64,000 bases of DNA from Candidatus Abzuiibacterium crystallinum (GCA_002787155.1 PCVY01000023.1:6828-70827); one strand, 5' to 3'. Positions 19,772 to 58,800 are shown, counted from the first letter of the stretch. The notes: generated from the letters alone by a model not told the origin. Program-made: numbers and translations.

Positions 19772-19803
19772 TCATTAATAGGTTCTATTAACATTTCTAA
19801 CCG

Positions 19804-19940: not shown

Positions 19941-19956
19941 ATCGAAGGGCTCAGGG

Positions 19957-19979: not shown

Positions 19980-20114
19980 CAACAGAACCCAGTCTTTTCC
20001 CAACAAATTTTTCTCTTTTCGTTAAAGATTTCCGTCTCCTGTCGATATTTATGATAGTACAGGTAAGAGTACTTCCTTGTTCCTGGTTCCTGGTTTTAAA
20101 GAGAGCGACTCTGA

Positions 20115-20366: not shown

Positions 20367-20389
20367 GCGCGCGCGAGAGGAGAACGGCG

Positions 20390-21445: not shown

Positions 21446-21454
21446 ATTATTCAC

Positions 21455-23320: not shown

Positions 23321-23334
23321 ACACAGGACAACAG

Positions 23335-23946: not shown

Positions 23947-23955
23947 GCAGATACC

Positions 23956-31701: not shown

Positions 31702-31800
31702 ATGTTCATCCCTAAAAATATCCAGAGAGCCATAGCCTTTTTTCTTGCCATTTCATTCTCTTTATCGAATGGCCCAACGCTTTTACTTGCCGAAACTTAT
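31702..31800 (+). other. N-terminal signal-peptide-like / signal-anchor segment of the giant protein
   Basis: 'MFIPKNIQRAIAFFLAISFSLSNGPTLLLAETY': positively charged n-region (K5, R9), a 12-aa hydrophobic core, possible cleavage at LLA|ETY. Confidence 0.45.
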
Positions 31801-34800: not shown

Positions 34801-37800
34801 ATAATCCCTGTTTTACATACAACACTTGAACAAATTCACGGAACGAGCAGTCAAGCCAATATGGCCAGAGTAACCATTACACGAATATTGGAAAAACTCT
34901 CGAAAAAGGTTCCTCTCCCTGCGTTGGCCAGTATTCAGAATGCCTTACTTTTAGCGCTCAAATTGACCGAAGGTTCAGATATTGATACAAGTCACACCAG
35001 AAATAACATAGCTCATTGCTTGGCTTTGGTCACACTGCGTTATTATCAGGTTATTCATTTGACTGATAATAGGTTACCCTTCATCAGTTTAGAAAAACTT
35101 TTGTCAATGGTAAGTTCCGGTCCGGATCGTATTTCACTTTTTCCTATTTATGGGGATCTTGAAGTGATTGGTCAAATCCTGCAATCTCAAGACCAGACAA
35201 ACATGATACAACAACTGAATGCTTACCGGGAACAATTGATGGCACAGTATCAAAGGGAACAGAGATCAGGGATCAGGGGACAGGGAACAGGGAACAGCTT
35301 GCCGGATCATGATCCGCTTTGGACAGCGGGGGTTGCCGGCGGCGTGAATGCGGGAGCAGGAGCTGACCGAGCAGAATTAAGAAACAAAAACTATTCCCAA
35401 ATGACAGCAGACGAACTGCTGCAAGCGCTCAAGTCTGTTCAAGGGACGAATGAAGCGTCGACGGATACTAGACGAGCTCTTTCAAATGCGCTGAATGCTG
35501 CTTTCAGAAGAATGAATCAAGAAGAACTACCCGCCATTTTTCAGGACTCGCTCGCCGCGATCAAAGAAATTGGTGAAAGTGATGAGCGCACTCAAGCTAG
35601 AGATTGGATTGCCATGCCACTCTTTGCCCTCATCCAAAAGATTGACGAGGATCAGCTTGCTTTCGTCTTTGAAAATCTGATAGCTGTTCTAAGAGAAATA
35701 AAAGGATCGAGTCATGCGGCGATTCAAGTACGATTCAGCATCATACAAAATTTAATCTTGATTGTGCACCGCCGTCATCATCGATCTTACACAAGCCCCG
35801 GGGATAAACTCGCTCAGGCGCTTCACGTCCTTTTCTCAGCTGCTTCTTCAAAAGTCTGGGTTTTTGAAACGTATGGCAGTTTACATGCGTTGGATCAAAT
35901 CTTTGAATCCAAAGATGACAAAACAATCATTGCAAAACTGAGCGCTTACAGGGAACAATTAATCGCACTGTCTCTAAGGGAAGAAGCGCCGCGGGTCAAG
36001 GGTCAAGAGCAGCAAGACACGGGCGGCGGATCAGGGGACACGGATCAAAATGATTCCATCTGGGCAGCCACTGTCTTGGGGCCTGCGAATGTGAGCGCCT
36101 CTATCAAAATTCATTCATCACGGTCTGAATTACGCATGAAACGCCGTTTGGATCCTTTAGATCAACTCTTGAATGATCTTAAGTCACTCAAAGGTTCGGG
36201 TGATACCACAAACGGCATCAGGGCAGATCTTGCGGATGCCCTGACAACATTGGGCAGAAAATTAACCGAATCTCAATTATTTCTTATCGTTGATCCCATC
36301 ATTACACAATTAGAACAAATTGAAGGATCACGATATACGGCCAATCGGGCAAAACTGGCCATTACCTCATTCATTAATATGGCAGCATCGCGCCTTTCGC
36401 CTACTCAACTGGGCGGTTTGGTTAAGCCATTATTTAACCAAATTGTGTTCAAACGTGAACTGGAAGAATTGACTTCAAACATACCAGTTTCATTTGGCGA
36501 CAGTTTGCTGGAAGTTGTCAGAGAAATCGATCAAACCCAATTACAGGAAGTGGCACGTTTACTGTTTGATTATTTAACAAATCTTCCGGATGACTTGGAA
36601 TACACAAATCTAAGTCTACGTTCTATTTGCCGGGCTTTGACAATGGTATTTAAACGTATCGATACCTTCCCATGGTCGGAAGCAGTTGCTGCGTTTAAAA
36701 CATTACACAGAAACACTGAGCAGACCCGAACATTCTACCCAGCCTTTCCATGGATTTCAGATGTTTTAGCCATGGCGCTCCTCAGAATGCACCAGATTGA
36801 AATTGAAAAAGGGAGGGACAGCCTTTTTTCTGCGCTTTCCCGTCTTTTGGAGTTTCATAAGGACGACACGGTTCTTTTTCTGCGTCATGGAGATTTTAAC
36901 GAAGTTAATTCCATCCTCCAGTCTCACGCGGATCGTTCTACCAAAACCGCGCAACTCAATCATTACCGCGAACAATTACTGGCCTTACATCAAAGGGAAC
37001 AGGGAGCAGGGAGCAGGGAACAGGGAACTCCGCCACACAGCGTCGGGCGGATCCGTCCTCCGGCGGAAGGGATCAGGTCACAGGATACGGATCACGAACT
37101 CTGGCTCAGCGGACCGGTGGGGGCAGGAGCAGTTGGTGTTGGCGCAGCAGTGTTGAATACCAAATCGGAGCTCCGAACTCATGGAGATGATGAATATGAT
37201 GTCATGGGTTTTGAGTCAAAATATTGGAAAATGGATTTAAACGAGTTACTCGATGAACTTTGGTTCATCTTATGGTTCAACGAAGAAGGGTGGGGAAAAA
37301 GTTTTGATAGGAACACCATTATTGAAATTACCGATCATATTCAAAGGAAAAGTAAGGAAGCCGATCAAGATGAACTTGTTCCTGCCGCCCGGCGGCTTTT
37401 TGATGCTTTGGAAAAAACGGTGAAGTATTTCAATCGTGACACGGCGGCACCGCACTTGGCGGTTGCCAGAGCGCTTGCGGCCGTTCATTGGAAGATTCAT
37501 GGTTTCAATACTTCGGAATGGTCAAACGAGTTATTTTTGACGCTCGAAGATATTTTTGTAATTGCCATCGGTGAGAAATCACTTTTCTTAAGTTACAGCA
37601 GCCCGGCTGCCATTAAGCAAATTCTTGAGCTCAAAGATCAAAATGCCATGATTTACCAACTCAAAGCGCTGCGCGAACAAATTCTTGCCGCCTATCAAAG
37701 AGAACAGGGAACAGGGGACTCCGCCGCACATCGTCGGGCGGATCCGTCCTCCGGCGGAAGGGAGCAGGAACCGCGGGACACGGGATCACATGAGCCTCTT

Positions 37801-40800
37801 TGGACTGCAGGGGTAGGCGCCGGCGTTCTGCTATCGGCCAAATCAGAATTACGCGTGCAATTTTTTCAGATTGCTTTAACAAAGCTCGTTGACTTTGCAA
37901 GACAAAACGCATCTCTTTTCTTTCGATATGTCATCAACCGTCAGAAGGTTGTTGAGCGGGATGATGACGATTATGAAAAAATGAGTACCGATGAACTATT
38001 AGACGACCTTCAATTTATTCACCTGGCTTATGCTTTTCGCCATGTCCCGCCTCAGCGCAGGTGGGATATTTCACTTTCGCTTGGGTGGCGCGTGCAAAAA
38101 ATGACAAAACCCGAACTTCTCGACTTTTCAAGAAAACTTCTCACTATCTTAACAACCACAAAAGGTTCTAGTGAAAACGCACATCAAATAAGAAGTGCCG
38201 CTGCCGGAGTCTTTAAGGAAGTGGTTAGAATTATTCCAGATACCGAATTATTAGCTATCTTTAAGGCGCTTTTTTCAGCATTAAAAATAACGCACCAGTC
38301 GCTTAGCGTTGCCTTTAGTCACGCCGCCAGGATTGAAGAGCGTGCAATCACAGACACTTTTGAAATAATACGTAAAAGAATGCCTAAAGCTGATTTTTCG
38401 CAAGTGGTTGACGAATACTTGGCAGTGTTGGAAGAAATAAAGAATCGAAAATTTCTTTTCTGGGAAAAAACAATACAACACCAAACTCTCCATTTAATGG
38501 GGGAAGCAGTCTATTCCTTTCCGGAAGCTCAACTGAGGCGAACGGCTAAAGAATTGATCGCTATTTTACGAGCTCTCAAGGACCAGGGCGGAAATGTGAA
38601 CGAAATTCGAATTTTATTACTTTATGTTTTTCGGAACATCGTCGAGCGTTTACCCGAAGCTGATCTGGGCGGCTATGTGACTGAATTACTCTCAACGTTT
38701 GATGCTATCAAAGGATCGAACGAACACGCTGGAGAAGCAAAAGGAGACATAGGTCATATTTTGTCGAAAGCAGCTGAACGGATGCCGCCCTCAGAACTAC
38801 CTCATTTTGCGGATGAAGCATTGATCAGGCTAGAGTCAACGCCAAATCGGGGAAATCAAGCTTATCAGACAACGCGAGCGATGGCGGAGGCTCTTTGGGG
38901 TTTTGCAAAGGCAGTTGATCCCGAAAAGGCGGATCCGCAAAAGATGTCTAAAATCATGAATCTACTTCTTGAAAAATTAAAGCTGATCAAAGGAAAAGGT
39001 GACAATGAGGAGTGGGCCAAAATACATATCTTGCTCGCTTTAGGAGCCATAGCTAAAAAAATCCCACATCAAGAGCTTCCCGGGCTTTCCAATGCAATTC
39101 TTTCAGAGTTAACGCATTATGAGTTTAATGACGGACTCAAAGGCCGTTTAATTGATGTGCTGATAGCAATTGCAGACAGCATTGATCTTGCTGAGCTGCC
39201 AAAGATATCAAACGAGCTTCTGGATGTTTTAAAAGAGATGGGAGAATTAAATGATGACGAAGATGGAGGGTATCAAACACTCGTCACTATAGCTGTATTT
39301 TTTGAACAGATCACACCCAAAATCTCAGAAACAGAACTCCCTCGTATTTCAAAAGCATTTCTCACTGCACTCGCCGCCATCAAAGGATCTAGTTACAATC
39401 TAGACCGTGTGAGAAGGTTTGTCGGAGACGTGCTGGCTTTGATATCACTGAGGATCAATCACTTACCATTGGATAATAAGCCATTAATTGAACAGCTTCA
39501 AAAGTTCTTCTCGCTTGCTCCGGCTAGTCATTCACTTTTTCCGATGTACGGCGACCTAAATGAAATTGGGCATATTTTAAAGCTTGAAGATCACAAGCAA
39601 GTAATAGCCCAACTCAATGCCTACCAGGCACAATTACTGGCACGGTATCAAAGGGAACAGGGAACTCCGCCACACAGCGTCGGGCGGATCCGTCCTCCGG
39701 CGGAAGGGAACAGGGAACAGGGGACGGGGATCAGGTCACAAGACACGGATCACGATCTCTGGCTCAGCGGACCGGTAGGGGCGGGTATCCGGGCAGAATT
39801 AAGAAACAAAGACTATTCCAAAATGACGATCGATGAATTGTTACAGGCACTTCAAATGGGAAGGTCTGATCAAGAAGCTCAGGAACTTAAAATTGGAATT
39901 GCCAAAGTTTTAAAAGAATCAGCTAAAACCATGCAACCAACGGAACTTCAGCATCTTTCTAATAGGCTCCTTTTACTGCTAGAGGCAGCACCGGCAAAGG
40001 GGAGGGCGGGCCGGCAAACCATTCAAGCAGTTGCAGATATTTATCAAGTGATTGCGATGAAAATTGACCCTGCCGAATTGCCTAAGATTTTAGAGGCACT
40101 GCTTACCGCCTCAAAACTACCGCTCAAATATGACGTTGACGGCAGAGATGCTAAAAGGTTCATTACGATTGCATTGACAAAAGTTGCTGAACGAATCCCA
40201 GAAGAAAAACTTCCTACCATATTAAATTATGCGCTTCTTGAATTAAGCCATTATGATTTGGATGATCAATTAACATACAGTTTAATTTTTGTGCTCGATG
40301 CAGTTGCTAACCGAATCCAACCAACCGAACTGCCAAGAATTTTGCATGCCTTACTCGATAAGCTTAAAACAATCAAATCATTAGATGATAAAGATGAAGA
40401 GGATCTCATTTGGCAGGTAGTGATGATAGCAGCATTTACCTTTAAATCGATTGCCGCCAGAATGAGCGCAACGGAACTACCGGCCATTTCGAAAAGACTT
40501 CTCGAAATACGCTCGCTTGCCAAAAGAGATAGCACTCAGGCGGAAAAAACAAGAGACGCTCTCTTAGCGCCTTTTCCTGCCATTGCTGCCCGTATAGACA
40601 AAAAAGAATTACCTAACTTATTTGATCAATTTGTTGACATTTTGAAAAATACACACCGAACAGACGCATCGCCGGGATCAAGTTCTAACATGAGATTGCG
40701 TTCGCGCAAAGTATTGGCAATTATTTTTCTCAGGAACCATCAATTACCTCTGGATGATGAAACCTTGGCCAAAGCGCTTGAGAACCTCTTGGGCATTCAC

Positions 40801-43800
40801 TCTCCTACCGATTCACTTTTTCCCATTTATGGTGAGTTCTCCGAAATCGACCGCATTTTACGATTGCCAGGCCGTGAACAAATGATTGCTCAGCTCACTA
40901 TTTACCGGAAACAATTAATCGCACAGTCTCAAAGGGATCAGGGAACAGGGAACAGGGAACAGGGAACAGGGGACGGGGAACAGGGGACGGGGATCAGGTC
41001 ACAAGACACAGAATCAAATGATACGCTTTGGGTAATTAGTCCTGCTGTCGAACGCTCCGAACTCAGAACCAAAGATTATTCCCGCATGAGCGTTGATGAA
41101 TTGTTAAACGAACTTCAGTCAATCAAAGGATCAACTATTGATGTCAATTGGGCAAGAGAGGCCATTGCCGATACCCTCACAGAAATATTAAAAAGAATTG
41201 ATCCAACCAAACTTCCCGCTATTTCACAAGCCTTGTTGACCGCTTTAAAAGAAATCAAAGGATTTGCTGATGATGCTAATCGGACAAGATGGGCCATTAC
41301 CTTTTCCTTCCCAGAAATATTGCAAAGAATTGATCCAACCGAACTCCCCGCTATTTCACAAGCGTTGTTGATCACTTTAAAAGAAATCAAAGGATTATCT
41401 AATGCGACCAATGAGGCAAGACGGACCATTACCTTTTCCTTCCCAGAAATATTGCAAAGAATTGATCCAACCGAACTCCCCGCTATTTCACAAGCCTTGT
41501 TGATCGCTTTAAAAGAAATCGAAGGATCAACTGATGCTGCCAATCAGGCAAGATGGGTTATTGCCGATGCCTTCAGAGAAATGCCAAAAAGAATTGATAA
41601 GTCTGAACTTCCCGCTATTTCACAAACCCTCTTAGCTGCTTTAAAAGAAATCAAAGGATCAACTATTGGTGCCAATCAGGCAAGAGAAGCTATTGGCAAA
41701 ACCCTAGCTGTTATTGTCTTTCGTCATCATCAAATCCCTGTCACCGATGAGACAAATGATTTATTGAGCGCTCTTCAAGATGTCTTTACACTTGAAATGA
41801 ACGGTGTTTCCATCTATCCCATAGAAAACCATCATCCATTGAACAACCCGGACAATCCCATTCATCAAATCTTTAAACAACATGATCAAGATTACGCACA
41901 AATCATGAGCCAGCTCAATCGTTACAGGGAACAATTGAGCGCACAGCATCAAAGGGATCAGGGAACAGGGAACAGGGAACAGGGGACGGGGATCAGGTCA
42001 CAAGACACGGATCACGATCTCTGGCTCAGCGGACCGGTAGGGGTGGGTGCTGGTTTAACAAAAGCCGGTCGACAGTCCGCAGACCATGATAAAAGGGTAG
42101 AACTGCGAAATGAATCACCCAACCTAGAAGACTTGAGTCCAACCGATGAGGCCCGTGAAGTTGAAGTGGTCATTAAGGCAATTCATGCATTGACAGATTC
42201 GGTTTGGAAGCAACCGCTGCCCCGTCTCAATACCCGATCGAACGCAGGAGCTGAACTTGCTTCATTAGTGAACCAGTGCGTTCACTTGATACGGGATACA
42301 AAGATGACGGTTAACGAGCAAATACAATTGGTGAAGGCGTTCCTGCATTTGCTCGAGTCTTTCGAGTCCTTATACTTGAAGACACTGGTTGGAAGTGCGA
42401 GTCATTTGCAACTGCATTGGCTGCTTAGGCACGTCATGACGGCAATACCGTTCGGGCAAATCACGCCTATCCGTCATGAGATCTATTTATCCCAAGAAAT
42501 AGCCAGAAGGCAGGGTCCTTCCCGTAACACAACCTTGCATATAGATTTTCTAAGCGAAATATTAATCATGCTTGCATTGAAGCAAGCAGGTTTTAAAGGA
42601 ACGTGGGATACGTTAGCCGTTGATAAAATATACAACACAAACGTGTGGAAAGAATTGGGTGATTTCTATTCGGGAACTGTCAGGGTGCGGAGGGAAGGTA
42701 TCGGATTCCTGCATCAATATGCTGATGATGCTGAAATTAACAAGATTATAAATATCTGGCTGGATGATAGCGGCAATCTTGATCACACGCGTGCAGAACA
42801 AGTCATCACTCAACTTAAGCTCTATATCGATCAGTTGCTTCATCAAATTAAAATAAAAGCAAATGAAGAACCCGGGACCGATGATGCTGAACAATCAGCT
42901 GACTCTCGTCCGGAAGATATTTGGCTGCGGGGCTCGTTCCGCCCTCAAGGCGGATTGGGGCCTTCAAAATCTGAATTGCGCACGGCCAAGTCAAAATCTG
43001 ACCTTGGAAAGCGCTTAACCCAATTAGCAAAAGATTTAGAAGCCGAGGTTGAAGCGCGGCAGATAAAAGGATTGGCAAAGCAATTGCTTGAGAATAAAAG
43101 CACCCGCACAAAAACAGATGCCCAAATCGAATCAGAGATCAAAGAAAAAGCGGCGGATGATGCCGCTATGGACCGGTTAATTGCTCATTTAAAAATTGCG
43201 CGCGCTCTTAAGGAAGCGGGAAATGATTTTTTGAGGGATTATGAACAAACGCATTATCTCAAATTAGCTAAAATTCAGCAGCCAAACGCTGTTTTGTGGG
43301 GTCTGCGCTTTCTGGATCTTGATGATATCCAGGATCCGGAAATTCGCCGGTTGATGGGGAAACTTCAGTCACTTTTGATGGTGAACGAGTTCTTTGGGCG
43401 TTCTAGCGCCGCCTTTGTCGAAAGCGTGCTGACGGAATTTATTGTCAACACCGTGATCGGAGATGATTTTGGCATGACGGAACTCTTGACGTCTCTTGAT
43501 CCTAACCAAAACCTGATCGAATTGTTTCAAGATTGGGGCGTTAACGTTCAGCTCAAATACAGCCGGGAGCACACGGGCATTCAAGCGCTCTATGACATAG
43601 CACGTCTTTATTCCAAGGTGTTCCCGGAGTTCAACAATAATGCACGTACCGGTTTTATCACGCATGATTTCAAGGAAATGCTGAGGGAGCCTGAAGGGGA
43701 TGCCGATCGAAATCAGCAGGCACGCGCGTTGGCAAGGGGAGGAGCCGCGCAAGCACTCAATCTGTTAACCATTCGCTTGCTGGGTTTGCCAGCGGGGCGC

Positions 43801-46800
43801 ACCATGGAACAACAGTGGCAGGAACTTTTTAAAATCACCGAAAAAGGAATTCCCAATCTTCAGAAACCGGAACATTTAAACGGCGCGCGCGCCGAAGATA
43901 TTTTGGCGGGTCTGGCAGAAATTTCCAAGACGTCTCAAGGACAACTCAAAGAAGTGGTGGCTGAGCTCATCCAGGGACGGTTTAAATTGCTGGTGAATCA
44001 CGATGTCGAACGGTTTAAACAAATTGGCATCATCATTGGTTTTACGGGGATTGACGGTTTTGCAAAGATTCCGTTCGGCCGCTTGCGGGAAAAATATCAT
44101 CTGACCGAAGGCAGTGAAGAGGAAGGCCGGCTGCTCAAAATCGTTGCCCAAATTTCCAGAACAGCCCGGGAAGGGACAGGCGGCCTCATTGAAGAAGTGT
44201 TTGATCTTTACAGCCAAGAAGCCGGCGAACATTTGGACGATTTGAACAAACTGCTTCAGGCATTTAGTTACTTTGTGCGGCTTGTGAATTTTCACCACGA
44301 TTATGAACGGCTTGTCTTAGAAGGTGATATCGGCAAGGTGAACAATGAAGCGCTCTTTGTCAGCTTGCGGGATTTGAAGCGCACACTTGATATCGTGAAG
44401 AAAAACGATGCCAAAGGGATGGACATTCGCGATGCCATTGCTTCTGCTGTCAAGCGCCGCTATTACAACCGCTTGAGCATCGAAGATCGGGGTATTGTTC
44501 GTGATTTAATGGCGAGACACCGGCTGATTCATGAAAACGATCTCCTGGATTTTGATTATGTGATTGATGGTTTCAAAAACGGCAGTTCCCGAATTCGTAT
44601 CTATCGCAAACGTAAATCAGGCCCGGCGCGGTTTAAACGAACGGAAGTCAAGCCCGGCGAATATAAGATGGAATTAATTCAAGAAAGCGTGGGAAAACCC
44701 GAACTGCTGCTCGAGATTCCGCTGGCTCAGCCGCTTGCCAACGTTGACCCGAAAATTATTTTAAACGAAACGACCCGCCGTAACCTGGCCAATATTCTGG
44801 ATGCATTGGAAGTGGAGGAGGGAAAGCGCTTTAATCCGGTGCTCGAATTTGGCGTGACTTCAGGCGGCAAAAGTACGACGGCAGCGTTGGTTGCCAAGAT
44901 TCTGGGCGTTGGTTTTACGCGCATTCAAATCAATGAACGCACCGATGAATTTGACCTTTTCGGATCGTTTCAGCCTTATGAAATCAATATCACGTTAGAA
45001 GAAGCCATCCAGCTTTTGCAGGAAGCGCTGGCCACGAACAATTATAACGGTCTTGAGGATGTGTTTAGTCGTTTAAAGTCGGATCAAACGGGACAATTTT
45101 GGGAAAATTATTTCAATGCTCAAGAACGACAGACAATCGAGCTTGGAAAGGACAGCCGTTATCCCCAGCGTTCGGTATTGGAGCGTCAACGAGCCGCCAT
45201 TCGTGATAAATTAAAACAATTGGCGGATAAACAGTTAGAACTTGCTCAATCGCTCAAAAGTTTAAGCGCTCAGGAACGCCGCCTCATTGATTCCAAGACA
45301 GATAACCCTGTCTGGCAAGCGCAGCTTGCCCAGCTGCGCCGGGAAGAAGCGGAAGGTTTTGATCAGCTGAACCGCATCAAATCCATTGCATTTATGTTAA
45401 ACCACGAGGTGGGCCTTCGGTATAAGGAAGGGCGTTTTCTCACGGCTTACAAGCGCGGAGATCTCATTCTGCTTGATGAAGTGAATTTAGCCAACGAAGA
45501 AATGCTGGGCGTGCTTTATCAATTACTCACTTTGGGTTATTTGGAATATAACGGCAAAGTGATCGAACCGCCTTTGGGCAAACAAGCCCGCATTCTAGCC
45601 ACGGCCAATCCCTCCGGTTATGCGGGCCGCAGACGCATGAGCGAAGCTTTTATGAACCGTTTTGAAATTATCCATGTTGATGAAATGACGGATGAGGAAA
45701 TGCGCGATATCGTGGTTGGGCAAATGATGAAAGATCTCATCGCCTCAGGCCGCTATACAGCCGGGGATTTTGAACAAAACTCGGATGAAGCGCCGGAAGT
45801 ATGGGATAAAAAAATCAACAAGATTTTACAGGAAGAATATGGTATTACGCGCGAAAGCACTCGATTGTTAGCTGGAGTTCAGCGAAAATTTAACAGCATT
45901 TTGGCGACGGGCAGTTTTCCGCGCATGGGATCCGACTCCAATTATGTCTTCACGCTTCGGAATCTTCAACGGATCGCCGGCGATGTGAAAGAACGCAAAG
46001 AAAATGGCGAACGCATCACCCTTGAAACCTGGATTCGGGAAGCGTACGGCGAATATGCCGGCGTCCTCATGCGGCCCAGCACACAGCCTTCCTACACCGC
46101 AGAGCGGCTTAAGCCTGATGAATCATTGCCGGCGGAACATCATTTATGGGATGATCCGGATTACAAAACCATTCGGCGGGTATTTACGACTTTCATGGGT
46201 GAATTGATTGCCGGAGAAAGTCATCAAAGTTACGATGACGCTTTTGACGAACTCATTCGCCGGCATTTTGAAACCATTCCGTATGTCTATGACTCAACCG
46301 CCCATGCCATCAAGCTGGACGGTCTTCTTACCCAAGGTGCTGAGCCAAACGATCAAAACCCCATTGAACCTTTAATCGAAGTGGGGTCAACCAAAATGGT
46401 TCAAAGGCAAATTTTAAAAGGCATTCGCCGGAATATCCCAACGCTCCTTGTCGGTCAATCCGGCGGCGGTAAAACAGAAATCATCGGCGACTTAGTCAAT
46501 CGCCTTGGCCGTCAATATATCAGCGTGTCTTTGGGCGATGCCACACTGGAAAGTCTGATCGGCACCATGGAATACAACCGAATGGAAAAACGTTTTGTTT
46601 ATCGGCGGGGTGTGCTCGTCAAAGCCATGGAAGAAGGTTCGGTTTTGGTGCTGGAAGAACTCAACATGGCTAAATCGGGCATATTAGAAATTTTGAATGA
46701 ATATTTCGATGACGGAACGTTTACCAACCCGTTTACCCTAAAACAGGTAGCGGTACACCGTGACTTCCGGTTGTTCGCTACCATGAACCCGATTCAGGGT

Positions 46801-49800
46801 GAGACGGGAGAAAATTTAGGCCGCGTGAGTTTGTCGCCCGCTCTCAGAAACCGCTTTCGGGAAATTTGGGTGCCGCACAAGAAAACGGACGCTGAAATGA
46901 ACGAAATTTTAATCGGAAAATTCAAGCAATTGGGTGTTGAAAAAATCGAAAAAGCAACAGGCGCCAAAATCATCGGCTTTTTCCGTGCCTATGAAGAGGC
47001 TTTTAAAGATCAAGCTGATCCGGTGTATTACACCAGTCTGCGCGATTTGAATCGGATTGCCAAAATCATGGCTTATTTAATCAATGAGCTCGACATGCAT
47101 GAGTCGGATGCATTGGCGCGCGCCATTGACCGCGTTTACCGTTTACGCATGCAAAACAGCGGCGCCTTGGCAGTGGTCGATCAAATTCTCATTGAGCTTA
47201 AAATCAAGATCCCGGGTGCCGGTCAATTGTCGTACCAGTCTCGGAATGGCGTCTTGGAAGTGCGCGATGGTCAAACACTGGTTGCCAAATTAGACCTTTC
47301 TTTGATACAGGCCAAGCTTCGCGACCGCATCCGCGGAGAACTCAGTGCTGATACGGATCCGGCAGAACTTGAAGCACTGACAGAGAAGCGTCTAAAAACT
47401 CTCTTGGATGAAGCTGTCTTGGTAGAAAATCCGCGCACGAAGGCTCATCTGCTGGATTTAATGGAAGCCGTCACGCTTCCTTCCGGCGAAGTGAAAAAAG
47501 GAAAATTTAACCCGATTTTTCTTTTGGGTGAGACCGCCGGCGGGAAAAGCTCCCTTACCAAATATTTGGCACTCCATCTTTTGGGCCAAAACTATACGCG
47601 CATTCAATTCAACGAACGCACGGATGAGTTCGACCTTTTTGGCGCCTATGAACCGCGCGAGCTTCACATGGGTCTGGACCGCGCTTTTCGGATTGTTCAA
47701 AATGCGATGGAACAAGGGGAGTGGGTCAAAATCAAGAAAGCCTTGAAGCTTTGGCAAACGGGGGCATTGACCGAAGATGATCTGTCCGAACTTGAAATGA
47801 TTGAGAAGGTGGAAGAGCGCATTCGCACGGTAGATTTAGAGGCCTCTCAACAGATCACAAAGATCTTAAAGGATGCTTCCGAGGAAGATGTCTTAGGTGA
47901 CCCCGGTCAGAAACGTGAAGCCGAACGCAAACTCAAAACCATTGCGTTTTTGATTGAAAATAACATGTTAAATGTCGAGCTGGAATTTCGCGAAGGCAGG
48001 TTATTACAGGCGATCAGGCGCGGCGATGTGGTGGTGCTGGATGAAATGAACCTGGCGAATGAAGAAGCGCTCGCTGTTTTATATCAACTCCTGACTCTGG
48101 GTTATGTGGAGTATTACCACAAAGATACCCGGCAAGTCGAACGCATTACCCCGGCACCGGGCTTTAAACTCATGGCGACCGCAAACCCCGCCTCATATGC
48201 GGGTCGTCATCGGTTGAGTGAAGCCTTAATGAACCGGTTTGAGATTCATTATGTGATGAACATGACACCCCAAGAAATGACCGAGATTCTGCGCGGTGAA
48301 AATAGTCATGAACCAGTGTTCGAACGCGATCAGTCATTTCAGACCACTGTTGAGAAACTGACATTGCTTCAAGAAAATATCAATGAAGCGCTCCGAAACG
48401 GTCAATTTCCCGAAGTGAGTTCCGACCAAGTGCAAGGCTATTTATTTACGCTTCGCAATTTGAAACGTGTTTTACGGAATACAGCAGAACTCTTACGCCA
48501 AGGCGACAGTTCGCCGCCATCTGAGTCACTCATTCGACAAGCCTACCTTGAATACTTAGGCGTCCTCGGACGTTCAGACGCCTCCATCAAAACGCTGCAG
48601 TCTCTTTTCAAAGCGCCAAAACAATTTCCCCAATTTAACCCTGATTTTCGAATTTCCTTTGAGTCAATGACTATGCCCAACGGTCAATCGGGTATTTTAG
48701 CGGGTGGTTTCAAAGTCGTGAGACGTTTTTATGAAGATGAGGCAGAAGGCGTTTCGCACGATGCAGATGTCATTGAAGAGCTTGAAGAGGGTGCAACGAC
48801 TAATTTGATCCGCCAAGCAATTGCGAAAGGACTGTTAGATTCTCGGATGGCGGTTTTGCTGGTGGGGCAAAGCGGCGGGGGTAAAACAGAAATGATCGGT
48901 GATTTAGCAAGGCGTCTGGGCTGGCGCTACCGCTCCGTTTCGCTTGGTAATGCCACCCTGGAGAGTTTAGTCGGCGGTTATGCCATGGACCACGAAACAA
49001 AAAAATTCCGTTATATCCCCGGGATTTTAATCCAGGCCATGCGCGAAGGCGCCATTTTGGTTTTGGAAGAAATGAATATGGCACCGTCCGGACTATTAGA
49101 AATTCTGAATGAATATTTTGACGAAAGTACCTTTACCAATCCCATGACGGGACAGAAAGAAAAAATTCATCCCAATTTTCGGTTATTTGCCACCATGAAT
49201 CCGGAAAAAGGTGTGACGAGTACCAGCGAAGGCCGTGTCGGCTTGTCGCCCGCTCTTCGCAGCCGTTTCTCAGAAGTATGGGTGCCCCATATACGGACGC
49301 AGGCGGAAACAGAGAGAATTATTCGTAAGAAATTCAGCAATCGAGGGGTAAGCCATGTACCGCCCAAAGTGACGGAAGATATTTACCGCGTCTATGACCA
49401 ATACCGCCGGTTTGTTGAAGAAGGCAAAATTGGCCAAGAAAGCAACGAAGGCTATTACGTCGGTTTGCGTGATGTGGTGAAAATAATTGACCTGGTAGCG
49501 CAGGATCAATCGCGCGGCATTCCAATGGAAGAAGCGCTGCGTTTTGCCTTCAAACGAATTTTTTATTTACGCCTCAATAGCGATGCGGACCGCAAAACAG
49601 TTCAAGAAGAGATTCTAAAAACATACGACATGAGCAAGACGGAATACCAATGGAAAAGTGTGAATGACCATTGGGTGGTTAAGCGCACTCAGTGGCAAAC
49701 GGCAGAAGTTCCGAAGGCACTTTTGAAGGAAAAAGGATTTATTTTAACGCCGCAAAGCCAAGAAGAGCTCGCGCTTCTGCTAGAGGCAATGCAGCGCGGC

Positions 49801-52800
49801 GTGACTATTCAGGGCAAAGCAGCCGCGCGTTCCTTTAATCCCATGATGCTGTTTGGTGAGACTTCCGGAGGAAAGTCTACCTTGGTTGAAATTGCCGCCA
49901 GTATTTTCCGGACCCCCTTTACCCGTATTCAAATGAATCAACGAACCGATGAATACGATTTGTTGGGCAGTTACCATCCTGTTGAAGTGAAGTTGACATT
50001 TGAACAAGCCTATGAAGTCGTTCAATCGGTTATTCGCCAAAATCAAACACTGCGTACCGCACAAGTGCTGCGGGCTTTACACATCACGGATGATCACGTG
50101 AAATCGGTTTTGCGCATAAACCCTGATCAAACGATGCCCTTAGAGCAGCTTCAAAAGCGCTTTTTAGAAGAACATGTTTTGGCAAATGCACGGCAGGGAA
50201 ATCCCAAGAGCATTGAACAAATGAAAGATATCGGCGCACTCCTCTTGAACGGCGTTGCCGGCATTGAACTTATTTTCCGTGAAGGCATGCTGCTTCAGGC
50301 CATGGGCGACCGTGAAACCGGTCGACCGGGTCAAGTGGTTCTGTTGGATGAATTTAATTTAGCCAATGAAGAAGCAATCGGCATTCTTTATCAACTGCTA
50401 ACGCTGGGATATATCGAATTTCAAGGGCGGAAAATCTTTCCCGGTAAAGGGTTTCAATTAATTGTGAGCGGCAACCCTTCCCGCTACTCGGGCCGAAGGC
50501 GGATGAGTGAAGCTTTTATGAACCGCTTTGAGATCTTGAACCGTCCTTCAATGACCAAAGAGGAAATGGTTAAAATCTTGACGGAGAAATATGCTTTAGA
50601 AGCATCGGGGATTTCGAAATCCGGCATCGAAGCCCTGGTTGATTTGCAGTTCGACATCGAAGAAACGGCTCAGTCCATCGGTTTTGACTTTTTCAACCAA
50701 GATAACACGTACCGATTTAGTTTGCGGAACTTGGAACGTATTGTGCAGGATTTGAAAAAACGGATGGAAGTGGAGCCCGAACGTTCCGTGCAAGTCATGT
50801 TGCGCGAAGAGGCCTATTTAGAATATGCCGGTTTGCTTTCACAGTCCACCGATGAGGATGATCCGAAGAAGAATAATTTGAAAGTCTTAGCAGGTCTTTT
50901 TAAGAAACACTTCAATTGGGAGATCGATCCGGAAACGGTTTTACCCGAATTCAAGAAGCAGACGCTTGTTAAAGGAGAAGACGAATGGATTTCCTTAAAC
51001 GGGGTGCGTGTGAGAAAACTCTCACCGCATCAAATGTTAGAGAGTTTGCAGTTGGAATTAAATGAAGAAATCAGAAGCGGCGCCTTGGCAGATGATGATG
51101 GCGGAAAATTAGTGCTTTTAACAGAGGCGAATCTTGTGCGCATTTTAGCGCAGGTAGAAAAACGGCTCGCCAGTCATGATCCGCTTTCAAGAAAAGAAAT
51201 CATGCGCGAGGAAGCGCGCACGGAATATCTTAAGATGCTGGGGGAATCGCCTCGTTTGGTCAAGCGCTTAGACGAACTGATTAACCAGCATTTTTATACT
51301 CAAGCCGAGCGCATCGAGCCTTTGGTAGAACTCAAATCAACACGTTTGGTGCGCATGCAAATTTTAAAAGGCTTCCGTGACGGCGGCGTGATTCGTTCTC
51401 GTGATACGGAAGGACGGGAGGTTTTGAATCATCGTTCGCAGCCCGTGCTTTTAGTCGGACAATCGGGCGGCGGTAAAACCGAAGAAATTGCCGATGCGGC
51501 CAGGGAGCTCAACCGGCCTTATATTTCGGTGGCGTTGGGTGCGGCGACCATTGAATCGTTAATCGGCAGCTTTGTGCTGAATAGCGAAACGGGCACTTTT
51601 GAATTTCGAAAAGGGATTATGGTGCGCGCGATGGAAGAAGGGAGCGCGCTCACGCTCGAAGAGCTCAATATGGCGGAAAGCAGCATTATCGAAGTGCTGA
51701 ATGAATATTTTGATCGAGGAACGATGACGATTCAAGAGCGGAATGTTCCCATCCGCATTCATCCCAACTTCCGCTTGTTTGCGACAATGAATCCGACCGA
51801 AGGCAGAACCGGCAGAAATGCGGGACGTATCCCGCTGTCTCCTGCGCTGAGAAGCCGGTTTCGGGAAGTCTGGGTCCGCAATGAACGCAATAAGGGCGAA
51901 CAATACCGCCTCATGTTAGGCGGGATTCACGCGCTTGTTTCTTCTTTAATTACAAGAGGTCTGCCGGAAGATAGGCCGGATGAATTGGAAAACTTAGAGC
52001 TTGATTGGACACGCCGAAGATTGGCTGAGACCGCCGGGCAGCAGGTGCAATTCGCAAGCAGCGAGTCATTGTCCGCCGCATTAAAGGCGGGTCCGTCCAT
52101 TACACTGCCTCGCCATGACAGTTCAGCTATCCGCATGGCCAAAGCATCTGAAGACGGAACGCCCAAAGAAAAACCCACATCAAAGGAATGGGAGCGTATG
52201 GCTATCAATGAAAGAAAACGCATTTATGAAGAACAGTTTCGGATTGTGAGCCACGGCATCATGAACATCATGTCTTCCGATGAAGCCATCGAGTTAGGCC
52301 TATCAAGAGATGGAAGCCATCATTGGGCGTATGCACCTAGTATCAATACATTAATTTATAACAGCCGGGAAATCATGACTTTGAGCTTGGATGCGTTAAT
52401 CGGTGTCGGCGTTCATGAATCGATGCACCGTTACGGCACCCGGTATACGTCTCTTTTTGCAGACTTTTTAGATGCACAGAGTTTGGCGGGCAGTTTTTTT
52501 AATATTTTAGAAGACGGACGCATTGAAAATTGGGCACGTTATCGATTCCGGGGCGTGGAGCGGCCGCTGCGCACACTGAATGATGAAATTATTTTTGATT
52601 TTGAAGATGATAATGAAATGGTTGAGCGCATGATTAAAACTTCTAAAGATGGTAAAGACATAGGTCATGCCGGTGCCATCGGTAATTTCTTTCTTTATCT
52701 CGCAAAACGCGGATCAGATCCGGGCGCCGGCAAAGTCATCGAAAAGTTCTTAAAAGCGTTTGAAGAAAGAGATCCGGCTTTGAAAGAGGATATAGAAAAT

Positions 52801-55800
52801 CTCATGCAAGCCGGCTATTTTGGCGGTGCCAGAGACGAAGATATTATTGATGCGGCACGGCAGCGCAAAGCACAAGGCGTTTTTTCAGCTATTCCAGTCT
52901 CGCCTGATGATGTGGGTGTTTATCGTGTGGATCCCAATCCTTCGGAAGAAACAATTTTGCAATTGGCCATTCACCAAGGTATTTTGATTCGCGATTTTAT
53001 CATGCCCGTTGTTTACAAATGGGCGGTGCTCCAAGCCGAAGGCGAAGGAAGCGGGAAAAGCGGTTCGGGCGGCGCGCCGGGTAGAGGGAAAATCGTCATT
53101 CGGCCGGGCAAACCCGGCGAAGAAAGCACGCCTATTTCACCGCGTGAGTGGAAAAAAATTTGGGATTCATTATCTGAAAATGACAAAAAGAAAATTCTGG
53201 ATACGCTGGATGATCTCAAGAAAAAAGCCCAGGACCGCACAGCCAAAGATTCTATCGATCATAAGAACGCCGCCATCGATGCGGAAATTACCGAACCTAA
53301 GAGCGAGCGCGACCGCTTGATGAGCCAAATGGGCAAGATGATTCATGAGTTGGCAGGATATCTGAGAGATCTTATTCAAAATACGATTCGGCCCAAAGAA
53401 ATTACCGGCCTCAAAAAAGGCCGTATCGACGTCCGGCGTCTCATGAACGCCATGGCGCGCGGTTTTACCGACATGCGTTTTTACAAACAGCGCATCATCC
53501 CTGACAAAAAGGATATCAAATTTACCTTAATCATTGATGAAAGCGGCAGTATGGCAGGGATGGGTGAGTCCGGCAAAGGTCCTGAGGACAATGCGGCAGC
53601 CAAAGGTTACCGCACCTTAATGGGCGCCGCCCTATTAATGGAAGTCCTTGAAACTTTAGGCATTGATTTTGCAGTCCGTGGTTACGGGGATGACACTTTT
53701 CTGCATAAGCGATTTAAAGGACAGCGTATCGAACTATCCGATCAGCGCGCTCACTTTCCGCCGGTGCCGGATGGTTATGCCACACGCAAAGAAAAAGATA
53801 CTTTAATCGATGACTTATACGGTTCTATCGGTAACCATGGCGGCAACAACGAAGGGCCGGCGCTTCAAGCCGCGATTCGGGATATCTTAAAGGCAGGCGG
53901 TGAAAAACATTTTGTCATCGTGATTACCGATGCGATGGGTGACACCAAAGCCATACAAGAGATTTTAGACGAAGTCAGAGCTAAAAAAGGCATGATTGGT
54001 TCCACACAAACCGAGTTCATTGCCATTGGTTTGGGTAATGATACGGAATCGGTGCCGGAGGTCTACGGCAGCGAACACGGATTTTGGCTGCATGATGACG
54101 AAGTCCACAAACTGCCTTCCGAAATTAAAAAGCTGCTGCAAAACGTGATCCGCGGTGTTTATGCACCCGGCAGCGGAACCCCCAGCCGTTTTTCACAGTT
54201 CGGCAAACGGATGACTGATAGTGCTTCAATGGCGGGTGCGGCGGGTGTCGGTGCAAGTACTGCTTCTGCTTCGAGCGCAGCCCGCTCGCACTCAGAGCTG
54301 CGTGCAGATGATTTGGAGTCAAAGGTGCGGAAGATCATTATTCGCTTAGCGCGTTCCCAAGGCGATGGTTTATCTGCTGAACAAGAGCACACGGATATGC
54401 TCAGGCGGTTAGGGGTGCTGGCCAATCGAAGATCACCAGAGGAAGTTTTTGAAATTGTGATCGAAATGATGGCAGACGAGACAGTTGGTTTTAGTCGAAA
54501 AGAAAATGCGATTCGCCGCGCTATCATGGAAGCGTTTCTGAAAGAACTGACACCATCGGCTGTCCTAACCTCGAGCGCGATTAATGAGTTACAAGATTTA
54601 ATGCACACTTTAGCCAGGGAAGCCCACTCACCGGAGGCTCAAGCAGAAATTGACGTGATCAAGAGTCGCATCAAAGAGCTCAGGCTTAAACTGATCATGC
54701 GTCAAGAGGTCTTTACTTATGCCAAAATCACCCAACTTTTGTCTCTCGATCCCTCTGAGACGGTTGATTTATTTCTTGAATCTCTTTTAAGCGGCGATTA
54801 CAGCTCGGGAGTTGATCGTAAAAGAATGGCTAGTAATTTTGGAAATTTGATCTCAAACCTAAACGGCGAACTATTGTTGCAAACAACCGAGCAAATCATT
54901 GAAGCTATCCGGACAGATCCTCGAGCTCACATTGATCCTTATGAGAACCTTGAGAAATATGGGTCAAAGATAGCTTACGAACGACATTCGATTCTGTTGG
55001 AAGGTTTATTGGTGGCTGTGAAAAAGGTGGATCGTTCTATATTGCAGTCAATTGTTGATTGCATGGTTCAAGACTTGCAATATGAGAGGAGCAAGAAACT
55101 CAAGGCGGAAATTTTAGCTATTGCTTTGTTGCGTCAGGAAAATATTATTACTACCAATCCATCTCAAGAAGAAAAAAGTCTCATTAATGCATTAGTAAAC
55201 TTGCCGGGACGTTCCACTTTTCAAACCAGTGATCTAAAAGAAATAACGCTCATGTTGCAGCATGCCAAACCAAAACGAGGGCGCCTGTCAAGCCAAGCCA
55301 TTAAAGTCCTGAGGGAACAGATTAAGAATTTTGATGAGCAAATCAGAGCCCGGGCAACACGCGCACAAAATGAAAATGAACAGCGTTCTGAAGACAATTT
55401 GTTGCCTCCGGATACTGAATCTGAGCTTTGGTTAGAAAATCCTCGCGCGGAACTCCGTACCGAAAATGATGGCAGCAGACGTGTCGATCAATTGTTAAAA
55501 GAACTTCAATCGATTCAGGGATCAAGCGATGAAGCGAATCGCATCAGGCGCGACATTGGGCGGGCTTTAAAGAAGACGGTGGAAGAAAATGCAATCATTG
55601 ATCCCTCTCACGCTGCCCAAGTTCTCATCTCAACGCTTCATCAAATCAAAGGGTCAAACGCCGGGGCTTATAAAGCCAAAGAAGCCATCGGATGGGCGCT
55701 GGCCGAAGTAGCCAAAAAAATTGAAACAACGGAACTTCCCAAGATTTCTCAAGCTTTTATTTCGGTTCTTGAAGCAATAGAAGGATCGAGTGCTGCCGCC

Positions 55801-58800
55801 ACTAATTTGAGATTAAACGCTGCGTGGATGCTGGACGGAACCGCTCAAAGAATTGATTTAACCGAACTCCCTGCCATTTTCCAGGCGCTCATTTCAGCAC
55901 TTGGTCAATTAAGAGGGTCAGATGCCGGCACCAGGAATGGCAGAACAGATTTTGGCTTTGTGCTTACCGATATCGTGTTTCGTTACCATCAGCTTGCTCC
56001 TTATTTAGAAAGCAGTGAAAGTGAGTTACATTCAGCAATGAGAAACCTGATGACAATGCTTTCCTTTTCCGATGATGTTCCTCTTTTTCCTCGATATGGT
56101 GACTGGGACACTCTTCATCAAATTTTTGAGATGGGGGATTCAAAAAAAATTATTCAAAACTTAAAGAAATTCCGGGAACAAATTTTTGCACAGTATCAAA
56201 GGGAACAGAGATCAGGGGACAGGGAACAGGGGACGAGGGACAGGTTACAGGACACGGGAACAAATGAAACCCTTTGGACGGCGGGGGTTGCCGGCAGCGT
56301 GAGTGCGGGAGCTTTCGTTCCCGCTGCCCGCAGTGAGCTTAGGACCAAAAATTATTTTCGAACGGCAGTTGATAAATTATTAAGAAAACTTAGATCCATG
56401 AGAGTTCATAGATTATTAAGAGAACTCAAAGGATTAATTGGTAATACAACGTCTGATGCCCATTGGGCAAGATTGGACATTGCCGGCGCCCTCATAAGAA
56501 TATCAAAAAAAACTGATTCAACGGATCTTCCCGCTGTTACACAAGCCTTGTTTTTAGTACTCAGTACAACTGAAAGATCATCTTCTCTTGGTCTTGAAGA
56601 GGAAAGAAGGTTAGGTGTTTTTCGTGCATTAAGAGAAATATCAAAAAGAATTGATTCAGCAGAGCTTTCCGCTATCTTACATGCTTTGTTTTCAGTCTTA
56701 AGAGAAACTAAGGGATCATTTGTTTCTGCTGCTTATGAAAGAAGGGCCATTGCCAATATATTCATAGAAATATCACGAAGAATTGATCAAACAGAACTTC
56801 CTGCCATGATGCAAGGCCTGCTGAGCGTTCTTCTGGAAGTATTTGAAGATTCAGGTTCTGCGGACCATGATGCAATAGAGGCCGTTGCCGGCGTATTAAA
56901 CGAAATTTCAAAAAGAATTGATCAAGCCAATCTTCTCAATTTCACGCAAGCTCTGCTTTTAGCGCTAAGTGAAATTAAAGGATCAAATCAGGATGCCAGT
57001 ACGGCAAGAACAAAAATTGCCATCGTATTAAGGGAAATATCAAAAAGCATTGCTGACACGGAACTTCCTACCGTCACCCAAGCCCTGCTTAAAGCGCTAA
57101 ATGAGAGTGAAGGATTCGATACGTATGCCAGTGATGCAAGAGCGCAAATTGCCGTTGCATTAGAAGAAATATTAAAACGCATCGATGAAACAGAACTTCC
57201 CGCTGTCGCCCAAGCTCTGATTTCGATCTCGAACAAATTTAAAAGCTTAGGTTATAGCTTTTGGCCAAATTCGACCATTCAAGAGGCTCTTGCTGTTATT
57301 GTCTTTCGTCATCATCAAATGCCTGTTACAGATGAAACAAATGATTTATTGAGCGCTCTTCAAGATGTCTTTACACTTGAAATGAACGGTGTTTCCATCT
57401 ATCCCATAGAAAACCATCATCCGTTGAACAACCCAGACAACCCCATTCATCAAATCTTTAAACAACATGGTCAAGATCACGCACAAATCATGAGCCAACT
57501 CAATCGTTACAGGGAACAATTGAGCGCACAGCATCAAAGGGAACAGAGATCAGGGGACAGGGGACAGGGAACAGGGAACAGCTTGCCGGATCAGGATTCG
57601 CTTTGGGCAGCGGGAGTGGGTTTGGGTACTTTCTTGTTCACTGCTCGCAACGAACTTAGAAACGGATGGTTGGCTGAGCGGGGACACTATCTTGTTCACC
57701 GCTTTGTTCACATGGTTTATGGGATCCGGATTAAATTTAGAAAGAAAGATCATATTACCGAAAGAGTGCTTGCGCTCATTAACGAACTTAAATCATTAAA
57801 AGGATCTGGCCCGGATGTTGTTCAATCCATCACGGATCTTGCCACTTCATTAGTCGAGAATTTAAAGCACATCGATCAAAAGGATCTGCCTTATGTGCTA
57901 GATGTGCTTCTTTCAACTCTCAAACAAATCAAAGGCTCAGATGATCGAGCGACCGATGCGCGAGTGTGGATAACAACTGTATTGGGCACAATGGTGGATC
58001 GCCTTGATAAGAAGGAACGGACTAAACTGGTAAAAGAATTCCTTTCCATTTCTCGACAAATGAAAGGAACCATGGTGAACAACATTTTTGTTTGGACCAA
58101 TATCTTGCAAACGTTTGCGGCCATGTTGGCATATCTGGATGATCATGAGCGTCCCTTGATTATCGAAGAGTTGGTGACAGCTCTCAAGGACATAGAAGAT
58201 CCTACTGGGAATGCGGATCTGATTCGCAAAAATATCAGTGAAACTTTAAGTATTTTCTTCTTTCATCGCCATGGTTATCCTGATCTGGAAAATAAAGATC
58301 CGCTATTTGTTGCTTTAAAAAAGCTTTTTGGAGCAACACAAAACGCTGTTTCGCTCTTCCCGCGTTATGGTGATTTAACGGAAGTAGACAGGATTTTACA
58401 ACTTGAAGACCGTGAGAAAATTATTTCTCAACTTAACGCTTACAGGGAACAATTGATGGCACAGTATCAAAGGGATCAGAGATCAGGGAACAGGGATCAG
58501 GTGTCAGGGGATGGGGGGCAGGGATCAGGGAACAGGTCGCAAGATATGAACGATGATCTTTGGTTGGTCGGATTAGCCGGAGCGGCAGCTGTTCATCGGA
58601 CCGAATTAAGAGGCGTCGAGTCGCTTTTTAGGCAGTTGATTAATCTTGTTCGCTCAGCACTTGGCCGCAAGCAGCCGGCCGGCTCGTTAAAAACAAAACT
58701 TCATGCGCTGATCGGCATGCGGACCGAGGAGGCACATCAACAACGTGCATCACTTTTGGTGCAGCTTAAAAATGAAGTGTCTTATGCAAGCCTCAGTGAA

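Follow-up and report, generated by a model that had tools for sequence, protein, structure and literature searches.

A candidate midasin-like module of six AAA_5 units and a linked MIDAS domain in a giant protein of Candidatus Abzuiibacterium crystallinum

The window analysed here is a stretch of 64,000 nucleotides from Candidatus Abzuiibacterium crystallinum (GCA_002787155.1, PCVY01000023.1:6828-70827). It contains a giant open reading frame (ORF) on the + strand (31702..63999): the frame 31699-63999 comprises 10,767 codons without a stop and continues past the 3' end of the window, and its first ATG, at 31702, gives at least 10,766 codons. Residue numbers preceded by g are counted from nucleotide 31699, and all the features of the giant ORF given below lie on the + strand. 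The subject of this study is a module within the predicted protein, in which six AAA+ units are followed by an HExxH domain and by a VWA domain with a MIDAS motif. A preliminary description of this DNA, made from the sequence alone, had proposed a midasin-like ATPase ring inside a scaffold of more than 10,000 amino acids; the length of the stop-free frame agrees with that figure, and an upstream half-unit (D0), the HExxH domain and the VWA/MIDAS domain now come in addition to what had been listed.

Six complete Walker A/Walker B units lie in tandem at 44780-51900, from just before the Walker A motif of the first unit (D1) to the RF motif of the sixth (D6), as had been described. The Walker A motifs start at nucleotides 44851, 46453, 47527, 48865, 49855 and 51457 (g4385, 4919, 5277, 5723, 6053 and 6587), with acidic Walker B motifs downstream of them, in the same order, at 45463, 46642, 48028, 49054, 50335 and 51646. 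When the units were scanned singly against Pfam, AAA_5 (PF07728) was the top family for all six, with 44.4, 77.1, 63.9, 81.8, 47.9 and 80.8 bits for D1 to D6 (gathering threshold, 22 bits). The assignment of the units to the MoxR/AAA_5 clade is thus upheld, six of six lying above threshold (44-82 bits) and none being degenerate. Moreover, Walker A, Walker B, the sensor-1 asparagine and the RF arginine are kept in every unit of the window and of nine relatives (10 genomes).

Two classes of unit alternate along the chain. A-type units (D1, D3, D5) carry a long helical insert of 100-190 residues between beta2 and the Walker B strand, and B-type units (D2, D4, D6) are compact, with no insert. Walker A reads G[VE]T[SA]GGKS in the A-type and GQSGGGKTE in the B-type; Walker B reads LDE in the A-type and LEE (Glu-Glu, LEE[LM]N) in the B-type. 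The other A-type motifs are NLANEE, [AG]NP, MNRF and TLRNL, and the other B-type motifs are FATMNP, LRxRF and SLRD, D6 being without this sensor-2 motif. The 'LANEE / ATANP / MNRFE' hallmarks that had been attributed to all the units therefore hold for units 1, 3 and 5 (VSGNP in unit 5), and units 2, 4 and 6 belong to the second class. Among the A-type units, D1 (44725..46332) has GVTSGGKST, LILLDEVN, ATANP, MNRF and TLRNL, an insert of ~190 residues and a score of 508 bits against the A-type hidden Markov model (HMM). D3 (47380..48738) has GETAGGKSS, VVVLDEMN, ATANP, MNRF and TLRNL, and D5 (49696..51264) has GETSGGKST, VVLLDEFN, VSGNP, MNRF and SLRNL, scores 522 bits against the same HMM and shows an extended lid region with an additional lid-like segment. 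Among the B-type units, D2 (46318..47325) has GQSGGGKTE, VLVLEELN, FATMNP, LRNRF and SLRDL. D4 (48724..49713), with GQSGGGKTE, ILVLEEMN, FATMNP, LRSRF and GLRDV, gives a weak match to the midasin AAA_lid_7 family of Pfam, and D6 (51295..52068) has GQSGGGKTE, ALTLEELN, FATMNP and LRSRF.

D0 (43990..44628; g4098-4310) is what remains of a B-type unit, namely its C-terminal half and lid in degenerate form. It was found with the B-type HMM (g4199-4273, independent E-value 2.9e-6) and with hhalign (probability 97%, E-value 1.6e-11, against B-type columns 150-303), and it gives a weak match to Pfam AAA_lid_5. A sensor-2-like FVSLRDL is kept, the RF motif is replaced by KY, and neither a P-loop nor a Walker B is detectable in D0, global hhalign included.

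Past D6, the module reaches ~54153. The HExxH domain, putatively zincin-like (52174..52818), contains IHESMHR at 52414-52428 (g6906) and, 28 residues downstream, NILEDGRIENW. A Gly/Lys/Glu-rich low-complexity linker, read from the sequence (53041..53145; g7115-7149) and longer in the relatives, then precedes the VWA domain (53341..54153), where DESGSM at 53536-53553 (g7280, in IIDESGSM) is followed by VIVITDA. A homologue search with the HExxH-VWA region returned one fragment only, and the family alignment was assembled from genome loci. In its 19 sequences, which represent two families, H131, E132, H135, R136, N160, D164 and R166 are all invariant, and so are the D, S, G and S of the MIDAS; the distant family is 19-23% identical over this region and keeps both motifs. 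Pfam VWA matches 17 of the 19 members. Compared with the PDB, a profile of the VWA region matches best the Rea1 MIDAS (6qt8, 3.2e-12), then CobT (4.3e-11), and also full-length Mdn1, at its MIDAS region. A fold search with a model of the HExxH-VWA region, of which the VWA part alone is informative, likewise gave the MDN1 MIDAS (8ql1) as best match, followed by other VWA domains and NorD.

The same relative emerges from the ATPase region. When g4201-6950 was compared by phmmer with all PDB sequences, midasin was found at 5e-86, with six to seven domain matches of 37-64 bits each; the next families were NorQ (2.6e-8, 34 bits), CobS and CbbQ. Midasin is thus separated from NorQ by ~78 orders of magnitude in E-value and stands ~30 bits per domain above NorQ and CobS. 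In a collection of 5.8 billion proteins, the matches ranking immediately after a few close homologues are eukaryotic midasins, identity to midasin being 23-29%. An exhaustive search of 1.84 billion representatives gave ~10 close homologues, then several bacterial families with alternating P-loop types, HExxHR and DxSGS, and then hundreds of proteins of 4,700-5,500 residues with the midasin P-loop pattern. The earlier label 'midasin-like' is therefore supported, midasin being the closest solved relative by PDB search and a midasin-type MIDAS following the six units in the chain.

An AlphaFold2 (AF2) model was obtained for D2-D3-D4, three of the six units, from an 11-sequence alignment without templates (1,140 residues, predicted local distance difference test score (pLDDT) 75.5, predicted template modelling score 0.69). 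In this model, DSSP places an H2 hairpin after beta2 in D2 (95-110), D3 (455-572) and D4 (899-914), the predicted D3 hairpin being enlarged by an inserted helical bundle. The top 50 Foldseek matches of the model in the PDB are all dynein motors or Rea1/Mdn1 rings; the alignments span the whole model (TMq 0.50-0.57), with a sequence identity to dynein of 12-16%. The model superposes as one body onto the dynein and Mdn1 rings, and three successive units are thus predicted to follow the arc of a six-membered single-chain ring. Instead of a closed six-membered ring, an open spiral, a ring having D0 as seventh member or the participation of a second chain in a larger assembly could be envisaged: D0 directly precedes D1, the model spans three units only, and related bacterial proteins with two or four P-loop units indicate that other stoichiometries occur. 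Such arrangements appear unlikely, however, as there are exactly six intact units, each orthologous across genomes, as the P-loop and the RF arginine are both kept in all of them, and as the curvature of the modelled three units is that of six-membered single-chain rings.

It can be proposed, with a probability of about 0.62, that the giant bacterial protein carries a self-contained mechanochemical module of the MoxR/midasin type, working as Rea1 or the MoxR-VWA pairs do. The proposal builds on observed domain identities, motif integrity and conservation, and on the ring-like packing of the three units in the model. Rea1 has been described as a six-AAA ring with a linker and a MIDAS, and MoxR ATPases have been described as working with VWA partners in remodelling and metal insertion. 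The action of a MIDAS together with a ring has precedents: Rea1 strips assembly factors, and NorQ/NorD and CobS/CobT act in trans. In the mechanism that we infer for the present module, the six AAA domains would form a single pseudo-hexameric ring within the chain, of the kind found in midasin and dynein. Pfam aligns the units with the SRF arginine finger of MCM, and by this analogy the RF arginine can be read in the same way. Since this arginine is kept in D1 although D0 has no nucleotide site, D1 would complete the site of D6 across the closed ring. The metal ion of the tethered MIDAS may grip an acidic residue of a target protein and the MIDAS domain may dock on the ring, whose ATP hydrolysis would provide the force that pulls, extracts or remodels this substrate; the HExxH domain may cut the engaged target. 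The helical arrays on both sides of the module would act as a scaffold or lever. The N-terminal segment of the protein would tie the machine to the cytoplasmic membrane, with the ATPase part necessarily located in the cytoplasm.

Several observations weigh against this proposal. First, the alignment used for modelling held midasin sequences, so that the predicted geometry, which concerns three of the six units, may be biased. Second, the sensor-2 LRD motif is missing from D6 in the window and in all relatives, and the Walker B of the B-type units is EE and not the canonical DE, which makes their hydrolytic competence uncertain. Third, the degenerate seventh unit D0 leaves the occupancy of the ring ambiguous. 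Fourth, the N-terminus of the protein is Sec-signal-like, a hydrophobic core being preceded by basic residues and followed by LLA-E; export by the Sec route would leave most of the protein in the ATP-free space outside the cell. Finally, the HExxH domain has no match in Pfam, NCBIfam, the PDB or the fold search, and the AF2 model of the HExxH-VWA region, from a 4-sequence alignment, is poor (pLDDT 49).

The HExxH domain also gives rise to the main rival reading, an ATP-dependent protease in the form of a fused MoxR-vWA-peptidase system in which the VWA/MIDAS recruits, the AAA ring unfolds and HExxH cleaves. Exactly this division of labour was proposed for MoxR-vWA-YebA operons (Zhang and Aravind, PMC3495828). 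The invariance of the HExxH and of the downstream NxxED residues in 19 sequences of two divergent families is in favour of a catalytic role of this kind, as is the predicted secondary structure of the region, which in the low-confidence model (pLDDT 49) looks zincin-like, with strands, the HExxH helix and a second helix bearing acidic residues. We nevertheless regard a protease as doubtful, in view of that model confidence and of the absence of any peptidase match in Pfam, NCBIfam or the PDB; moreover, the characterised MoxR-type rings (NorQ, CobS, Rea1) remodel their targets without threading them into a protease chamber.

An alternative reading of the VWA domain is a metal or cofactor insertion chaperone of the CobS/CobT or NorQ/NorD type, contained in one chain and serving a specific metalloenzyme, without force on large assemblies. 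Such a chaperone would fit the VWA profile, for which CobT (4e-11) nearly equals the Rea1 MIDAS (3e-12), the weak matches of several family members to CobT_C and TIGR01651 in Pfam and NCBIfam, and the structures of the single units, which are nearest to NorQ and CbbQ. It is made quite improbable by the ~30 bits per domain by which the AAA units prefer midasin to NorQ or CobS, and by the surroundings of the module: no gene for a target metalloenzyme is found nearby, the neighbours being pilus/secretion and lipid genes, and more than 7,000 flanking helical-repeat residues with a putative membrane anchor are ill-suited to a simple insertion chaperone.

With one genome scanned per GTDB species, the same module was found in 18 loci from at least 16 genomes, at 45-82% identity, the closest relative of the window being an unclassified metagenome-assembled genome (MAG) with 82% identity. 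All 18 loci have six P-loops at conserved spacing, followed by HExxH and DESGSM. Nearly all of them are labelled Omnitrophota, including Candidatus Taenariivivens baikalensis; the exceptions are one MAG labelled Chlamydiae and one Candidatus Theseobacter exili (Auribacterota). For the window, with its unclassified closest relative, an origin from Omnitrophota is likely but not proven. A distant family with 25-29% identity and the same overall layout occurs in Planctomycetia and other Omnitrophota. In this light, it is barely credible that the ORF is a chimera of the assembly or a functionless, decaying pseudogene. Giant repetitive genes are easily misassembled, and two relatives have single in-frame stops inside AAA units, but a stop-free frame of 32.3 kb cannot have arisen by chance, and at least 16 genomes, assembled independently, share domain order and catalytic motifs at 45-82% identity. 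An assembly artefact was rejected on this conservation.

The in-frame stops deserve a separate mention. The D1 insert of one relative contains a TAG (L002:9887-9889, also in L003 and L004), which is identical in the JGI, ENA and NCBI assemblies, and D4 of the other is interrupted by a TAA (L017:10475-10477) located after sensor 1 and before the RF motif. Sequencing error, pseudogenisation or read-through could account for them.

The origin of the six units was approached with a neighbour-joining tree of 91 AAA units (271 columns, 200 bootstraps). Across five genomes, D1 to D6 each form their own clade (90-100% bootstrap), which indicates that the family inherited the six-unit order from its ancestor and that this order is under selection. 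D1, D3 and D5 together are monophyletic (100%), as are D2, D4 and D6 (100%), and both groups fall outside all midasin AAA clades. A phylogeny of the units had been suggested in the preliminary description; the A and B clades stand out clearly from it, whereas it reveals no orthology of single units with midasin. From the A/B monophyly and the clades by position, it follows that the six units were made by triplication of an A-B pair. Nucleotide similarity between units does not exceed 66%, and by this measure the triplication is old. The single-chain ring would accordingly have arisen within bacteria by A-B triplication, independently of the eukaryotic one or long before it.

Deep in the tree, the relation of the A- and B-types to the even and odd midasin units has a support of at most 25% and is not resolved. 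Profile comparisons with hhalign gave 223 for the A-type against midasin AAA2 (317 columns, insert included), 248 for the B-type against midasin AAA3 and 110 for A against B; each profile is thus nearer to midasin units than A and B are to each other. Midasin alternates likewise, the hhalign values being 233-350 when its odd units are compared with one another and 314-374 for the even ones. A two-unit ancestor shared with midasin is suggested, but not shown, by these profiles. It is tentatively conceivable that this (A-B)x3-HExxH-MIDAS family of Omnitrophota, Planctomycetia and others, mainly of the PVC group, represents in prokaryotes the sister or the ancestor of the midasin/dynein lineage. 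If so, the alternating AAA pair and the cis-linked MIDAS were present in bacteria before eukaryotes, and the single-chain AAA ring motor was not invented by eukaryotes.

That the nearest matches outside the family are eukaryotic midasins could also point to a recent horizontal acquisition of a midasin gene fragment. In a Cyclobacteriaceae MAG, a 738-residue two-AAA protein encoded on a 1.07 Mb contig (L024:9995-12208) has units that nest inside the eukaryotic midasin AAA3 (100%) and AAA4 (97%) clades; judged from this placement, it may reflect a transfer between eukaryote and bacterium, in either direction, and such transfers may therefore occur. For the giant protein, a recent acquisition is nonetheless very improbable. 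Its A- and B-type units are each monophyletic outside all midasin clades, identity to midasin is just 23-29%, and the protein lacks the midasin linker but has an HExxH domain, which is not known from midasin. Furthermore, the architecture is common to distant families in Planctomycetia and other Omnitrophota, and the GC content equals that of the neighbouring genes. Recent eukaryotic transfer was thus rejected on tree, architecture and distribution.

Two other bacterial proteins were observed in the course of this work. P0007 (4,471 amino acids, on a 512 kb contig) has three near-identical copies of an AAA-AAA pair with TPR and VWA. Judged from its sequence, a two-unit module seems to have been triplicated very recently in this protein, which parallels the step proposed above for the ancestor of the giant. 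P0043 (L071:3354-9435; 1,144 residues) combines HEAT_2 repeats with AAA_5 and a midasin-type lid, is 37-38% identical to the B-type units and is encoded directly downstream of the gene for an 834-residue VWA protein. With this neighbour, it may represent an unfused small version of the system.

Outside the module, the giant protein consists largely of helical repeats. BLAST among 400-residue pieces of the protein revealed a shared Leu/Ala-rich alpha-helical repeat family, HEAT-like but unclassified, which occupies g770-3480 and g7800-10767. The N-terminal array corresponds to 34006..42138 and the C-terminal array, which runs off the end of the window, to 55096..63999. Searches of the N-terminal 4,000 residues, the C-terminal 3,166 residues and the repeat units against Pfam gave no match, and the arrays match weakly importin-beta and designed helical repeats. 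The two arrays are 84% identical over 844 nucleotides and 93.5% identical over 293 nucleotides (approximately 41059-41886 versus 63145-63990 and 41704-41997 versus 57289-57582), far more than the AAA units are to one another (at most 66%). On this nucleotide identity, a recent intragenic duplication or exchange has taken place between the N- and C-terminal arrays.

At the N-terminus, a Kyte-Doolittle scan locates the sole hydrophobic segment of the 10,767 residues at g12-30 (31732..31788). It resembles a signal peptide or a membrane anchor and has a counterpart in the homologues P0006 and L008. It is followed by a domain (31861-33800; g55-700) that is found in these two homologues with 25-26% identity over ~550 residues. 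No Pfam match was obtained for this N-terminal domain, nor for the regions before D0 and after the VWA domain. Upstream of the gene, a 276-bp AT-rich intergenic region (31426-31701) contains G+C hairpins flanked by tatatata, terminator-like for the preceding LysE gene, and no clear Shine-Dalgarno sequence is seen before the ATG at 31702.

The 5' neighbours on the same strand encode an ammonium transporter, trehalose synthesis enzymes, a CLC channel, a phosphatidylserine (PS) decarboxylase, a LysE transporter and a CDP-alcohol phosphatidyltransferase that may be a PS synthase. The genomic context is bacterial. GC content is even over the whole window, the giant gene matching its neighbours. The three trehalose genes (3453-7662) encode an OtsA-like GT20 enzyme, a trehalose phosphatase and a TreT-type trehalose synthase, which suggests two trehalose routes in the organism. 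A type IV pilus or type II secretion-like cluster (9773-26147), ~5.5 kb upstream of the giant gene, comprises a GspE/PilB ATPase, a GspF/PilC platform protein, a prepilin-type N-methylation protein, PilM and a secretin. It agrees with the published remark that giant genes of Omnitrophota are located near genes of the type II secretion system (T2SS).

According to the accepted account, a single-domain MoxR-type ATPase gave rise 'early in eukaryotic evolution' to a six-domain chain and then to midasin and dynein (Iyer 2004, via PMC3495828; PMC3791482). The layout of six fused ATPase domains followed by a MIDAS is known only from eukaryotic midasin and has been thought a eukaryotic invention. A conserved bacterial family already fuses six AAA_5 domains and a midasin-type MIDAS. 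This module had been presented as a previously undescribed type of machine. No description of a bacterial midasin-like module was indeed found in the searchable literature (papers on Omnitrophota giant genes, surveys of huge proteins and of MoxR-vWA systems, and a 2026 preprint on very long Omnitrophota proteins); AAA_5 is mentioned there only in the legend of a supplement, as one of the domains that are frequent in the giant proteins of Omnitrophota. On the other hand, the family is present in public databases under generic names, its close homologues being labelled Omnitrophica, Candidatus Theseobacter exili, 'AAA family ATPase' or 'MoxR-like ATPase'. Thus, both the components and the way in which they probably act are already known, whereas no description was found of the single-chain six-unit arrangement in bacteria, its independent origin, the inserted HExxH domain and the giant helical scaffold. 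With the two-unit and unfused relatives, a route from a hexamer of one unit to a trimer of two and a monomer of six becomes testable. The functions of Omnitrophota giant proteins have been called obscure; an ATPase linked to a ligand-capturing domain gives a first concrete biochemical handle on one class of them and suggests that some are intracellular machines rather than surface adhesins.

Among known systems, midasin (Rea1/MDN1) resembles the module most. Both have six AAA_5 domains in one chain, in two alternating classes, with a long helical H2 insert in every second unit, and both carry in the same chain a C-terminal MIDAS-type VWA domain after a low-complexity charged stretch. Midasin is the best match in sequence and in fold for the AAA region and for the VWA domain. 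The bacterial module differs in starting with the insert-bearing class (A-B-A-B-A-B), midasin starting with the compact one, and in showing no unit-by-unit orthology with AAA1-AAA6; it is not a midasin orthologue. The structured linker of ~1,700 residues is missing, phmmer and profile comparisons aligning the AAA and MIDAS parts only; here the D6 P-loop and the MIDAS motif are ~690 residues apart, an interval that includes the HExxH domain absent from midasin. Unlike in midasin, all six sites look catalytically complete from their motifs, and there are more than 7,000 additional helical-repeat residues and an N-terminal hydrophobic segment. To our knowledge, the midasin ligands (the ubiquitin-like (UBL) domains of Ytm1 and Rsa4; pre-60S particles) have no bacterial counterpart, so that the function cannot equal that of midasin.

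In the MoxR-VWA pairs (NorQ/NorD, CbbQ/CbbO, CobS/CobT, RavA/ViaA), single-domain ATPases of ~270-500 residues form homohexamers and the VWA domain is on a separate chain. The giant protein shares with them a VWA/MIDAS partner of the CobT/NorD type, but its six units have diverged and are fused in cis with the VWA domain within a giant scaffold. A dynein homologue was rejected because there is no stalk: no coiled coil with a microtubule-binding domain lies between units 4 and 5, where the D4-D5 spacing is 330 residues, and modelled D4 consists of core, lid and a small beta element only, unlike in dynein, where the stalk leaves AAA4 and a buttress leaves AAA5. The presence of a VWA domain is a further difference from the dynein heavy chain.

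With the giant proteins already reported in Omnitrophota, of the archaeovorin and dockerin types (West-Roberts 2023; Seymour 2023), the present one has in common its probable phylum, its extreme length, its mostly unannotated sequence and a T2SS/type IV pilus cluster nearby. For the published giants, many transmembrane regions, divergent SecA DEAD helicase domains and domains for adhesion or carbohydrate degradation have been described (West-Roberts 2023). The protein described here has instead a single hydrophobic segment and an ATPase-MIDAS core; no SecA or DEAD match of Pfam was found in its part within the window, which also shows no adhesion or carbohydrate-active domain. Finally, the P0043 system has the same ingredients on a smaller scale, namely AAA_5 with a midasin-type lid, helical (HEAT_2) repeats and a VWA partner; in that case, one or two AAA units are contained in 1,144 residues and the VWA domain is carried by a separate protein of 834 residues, whereas in the giant protein six units and the VWA domain are joined in one chain.

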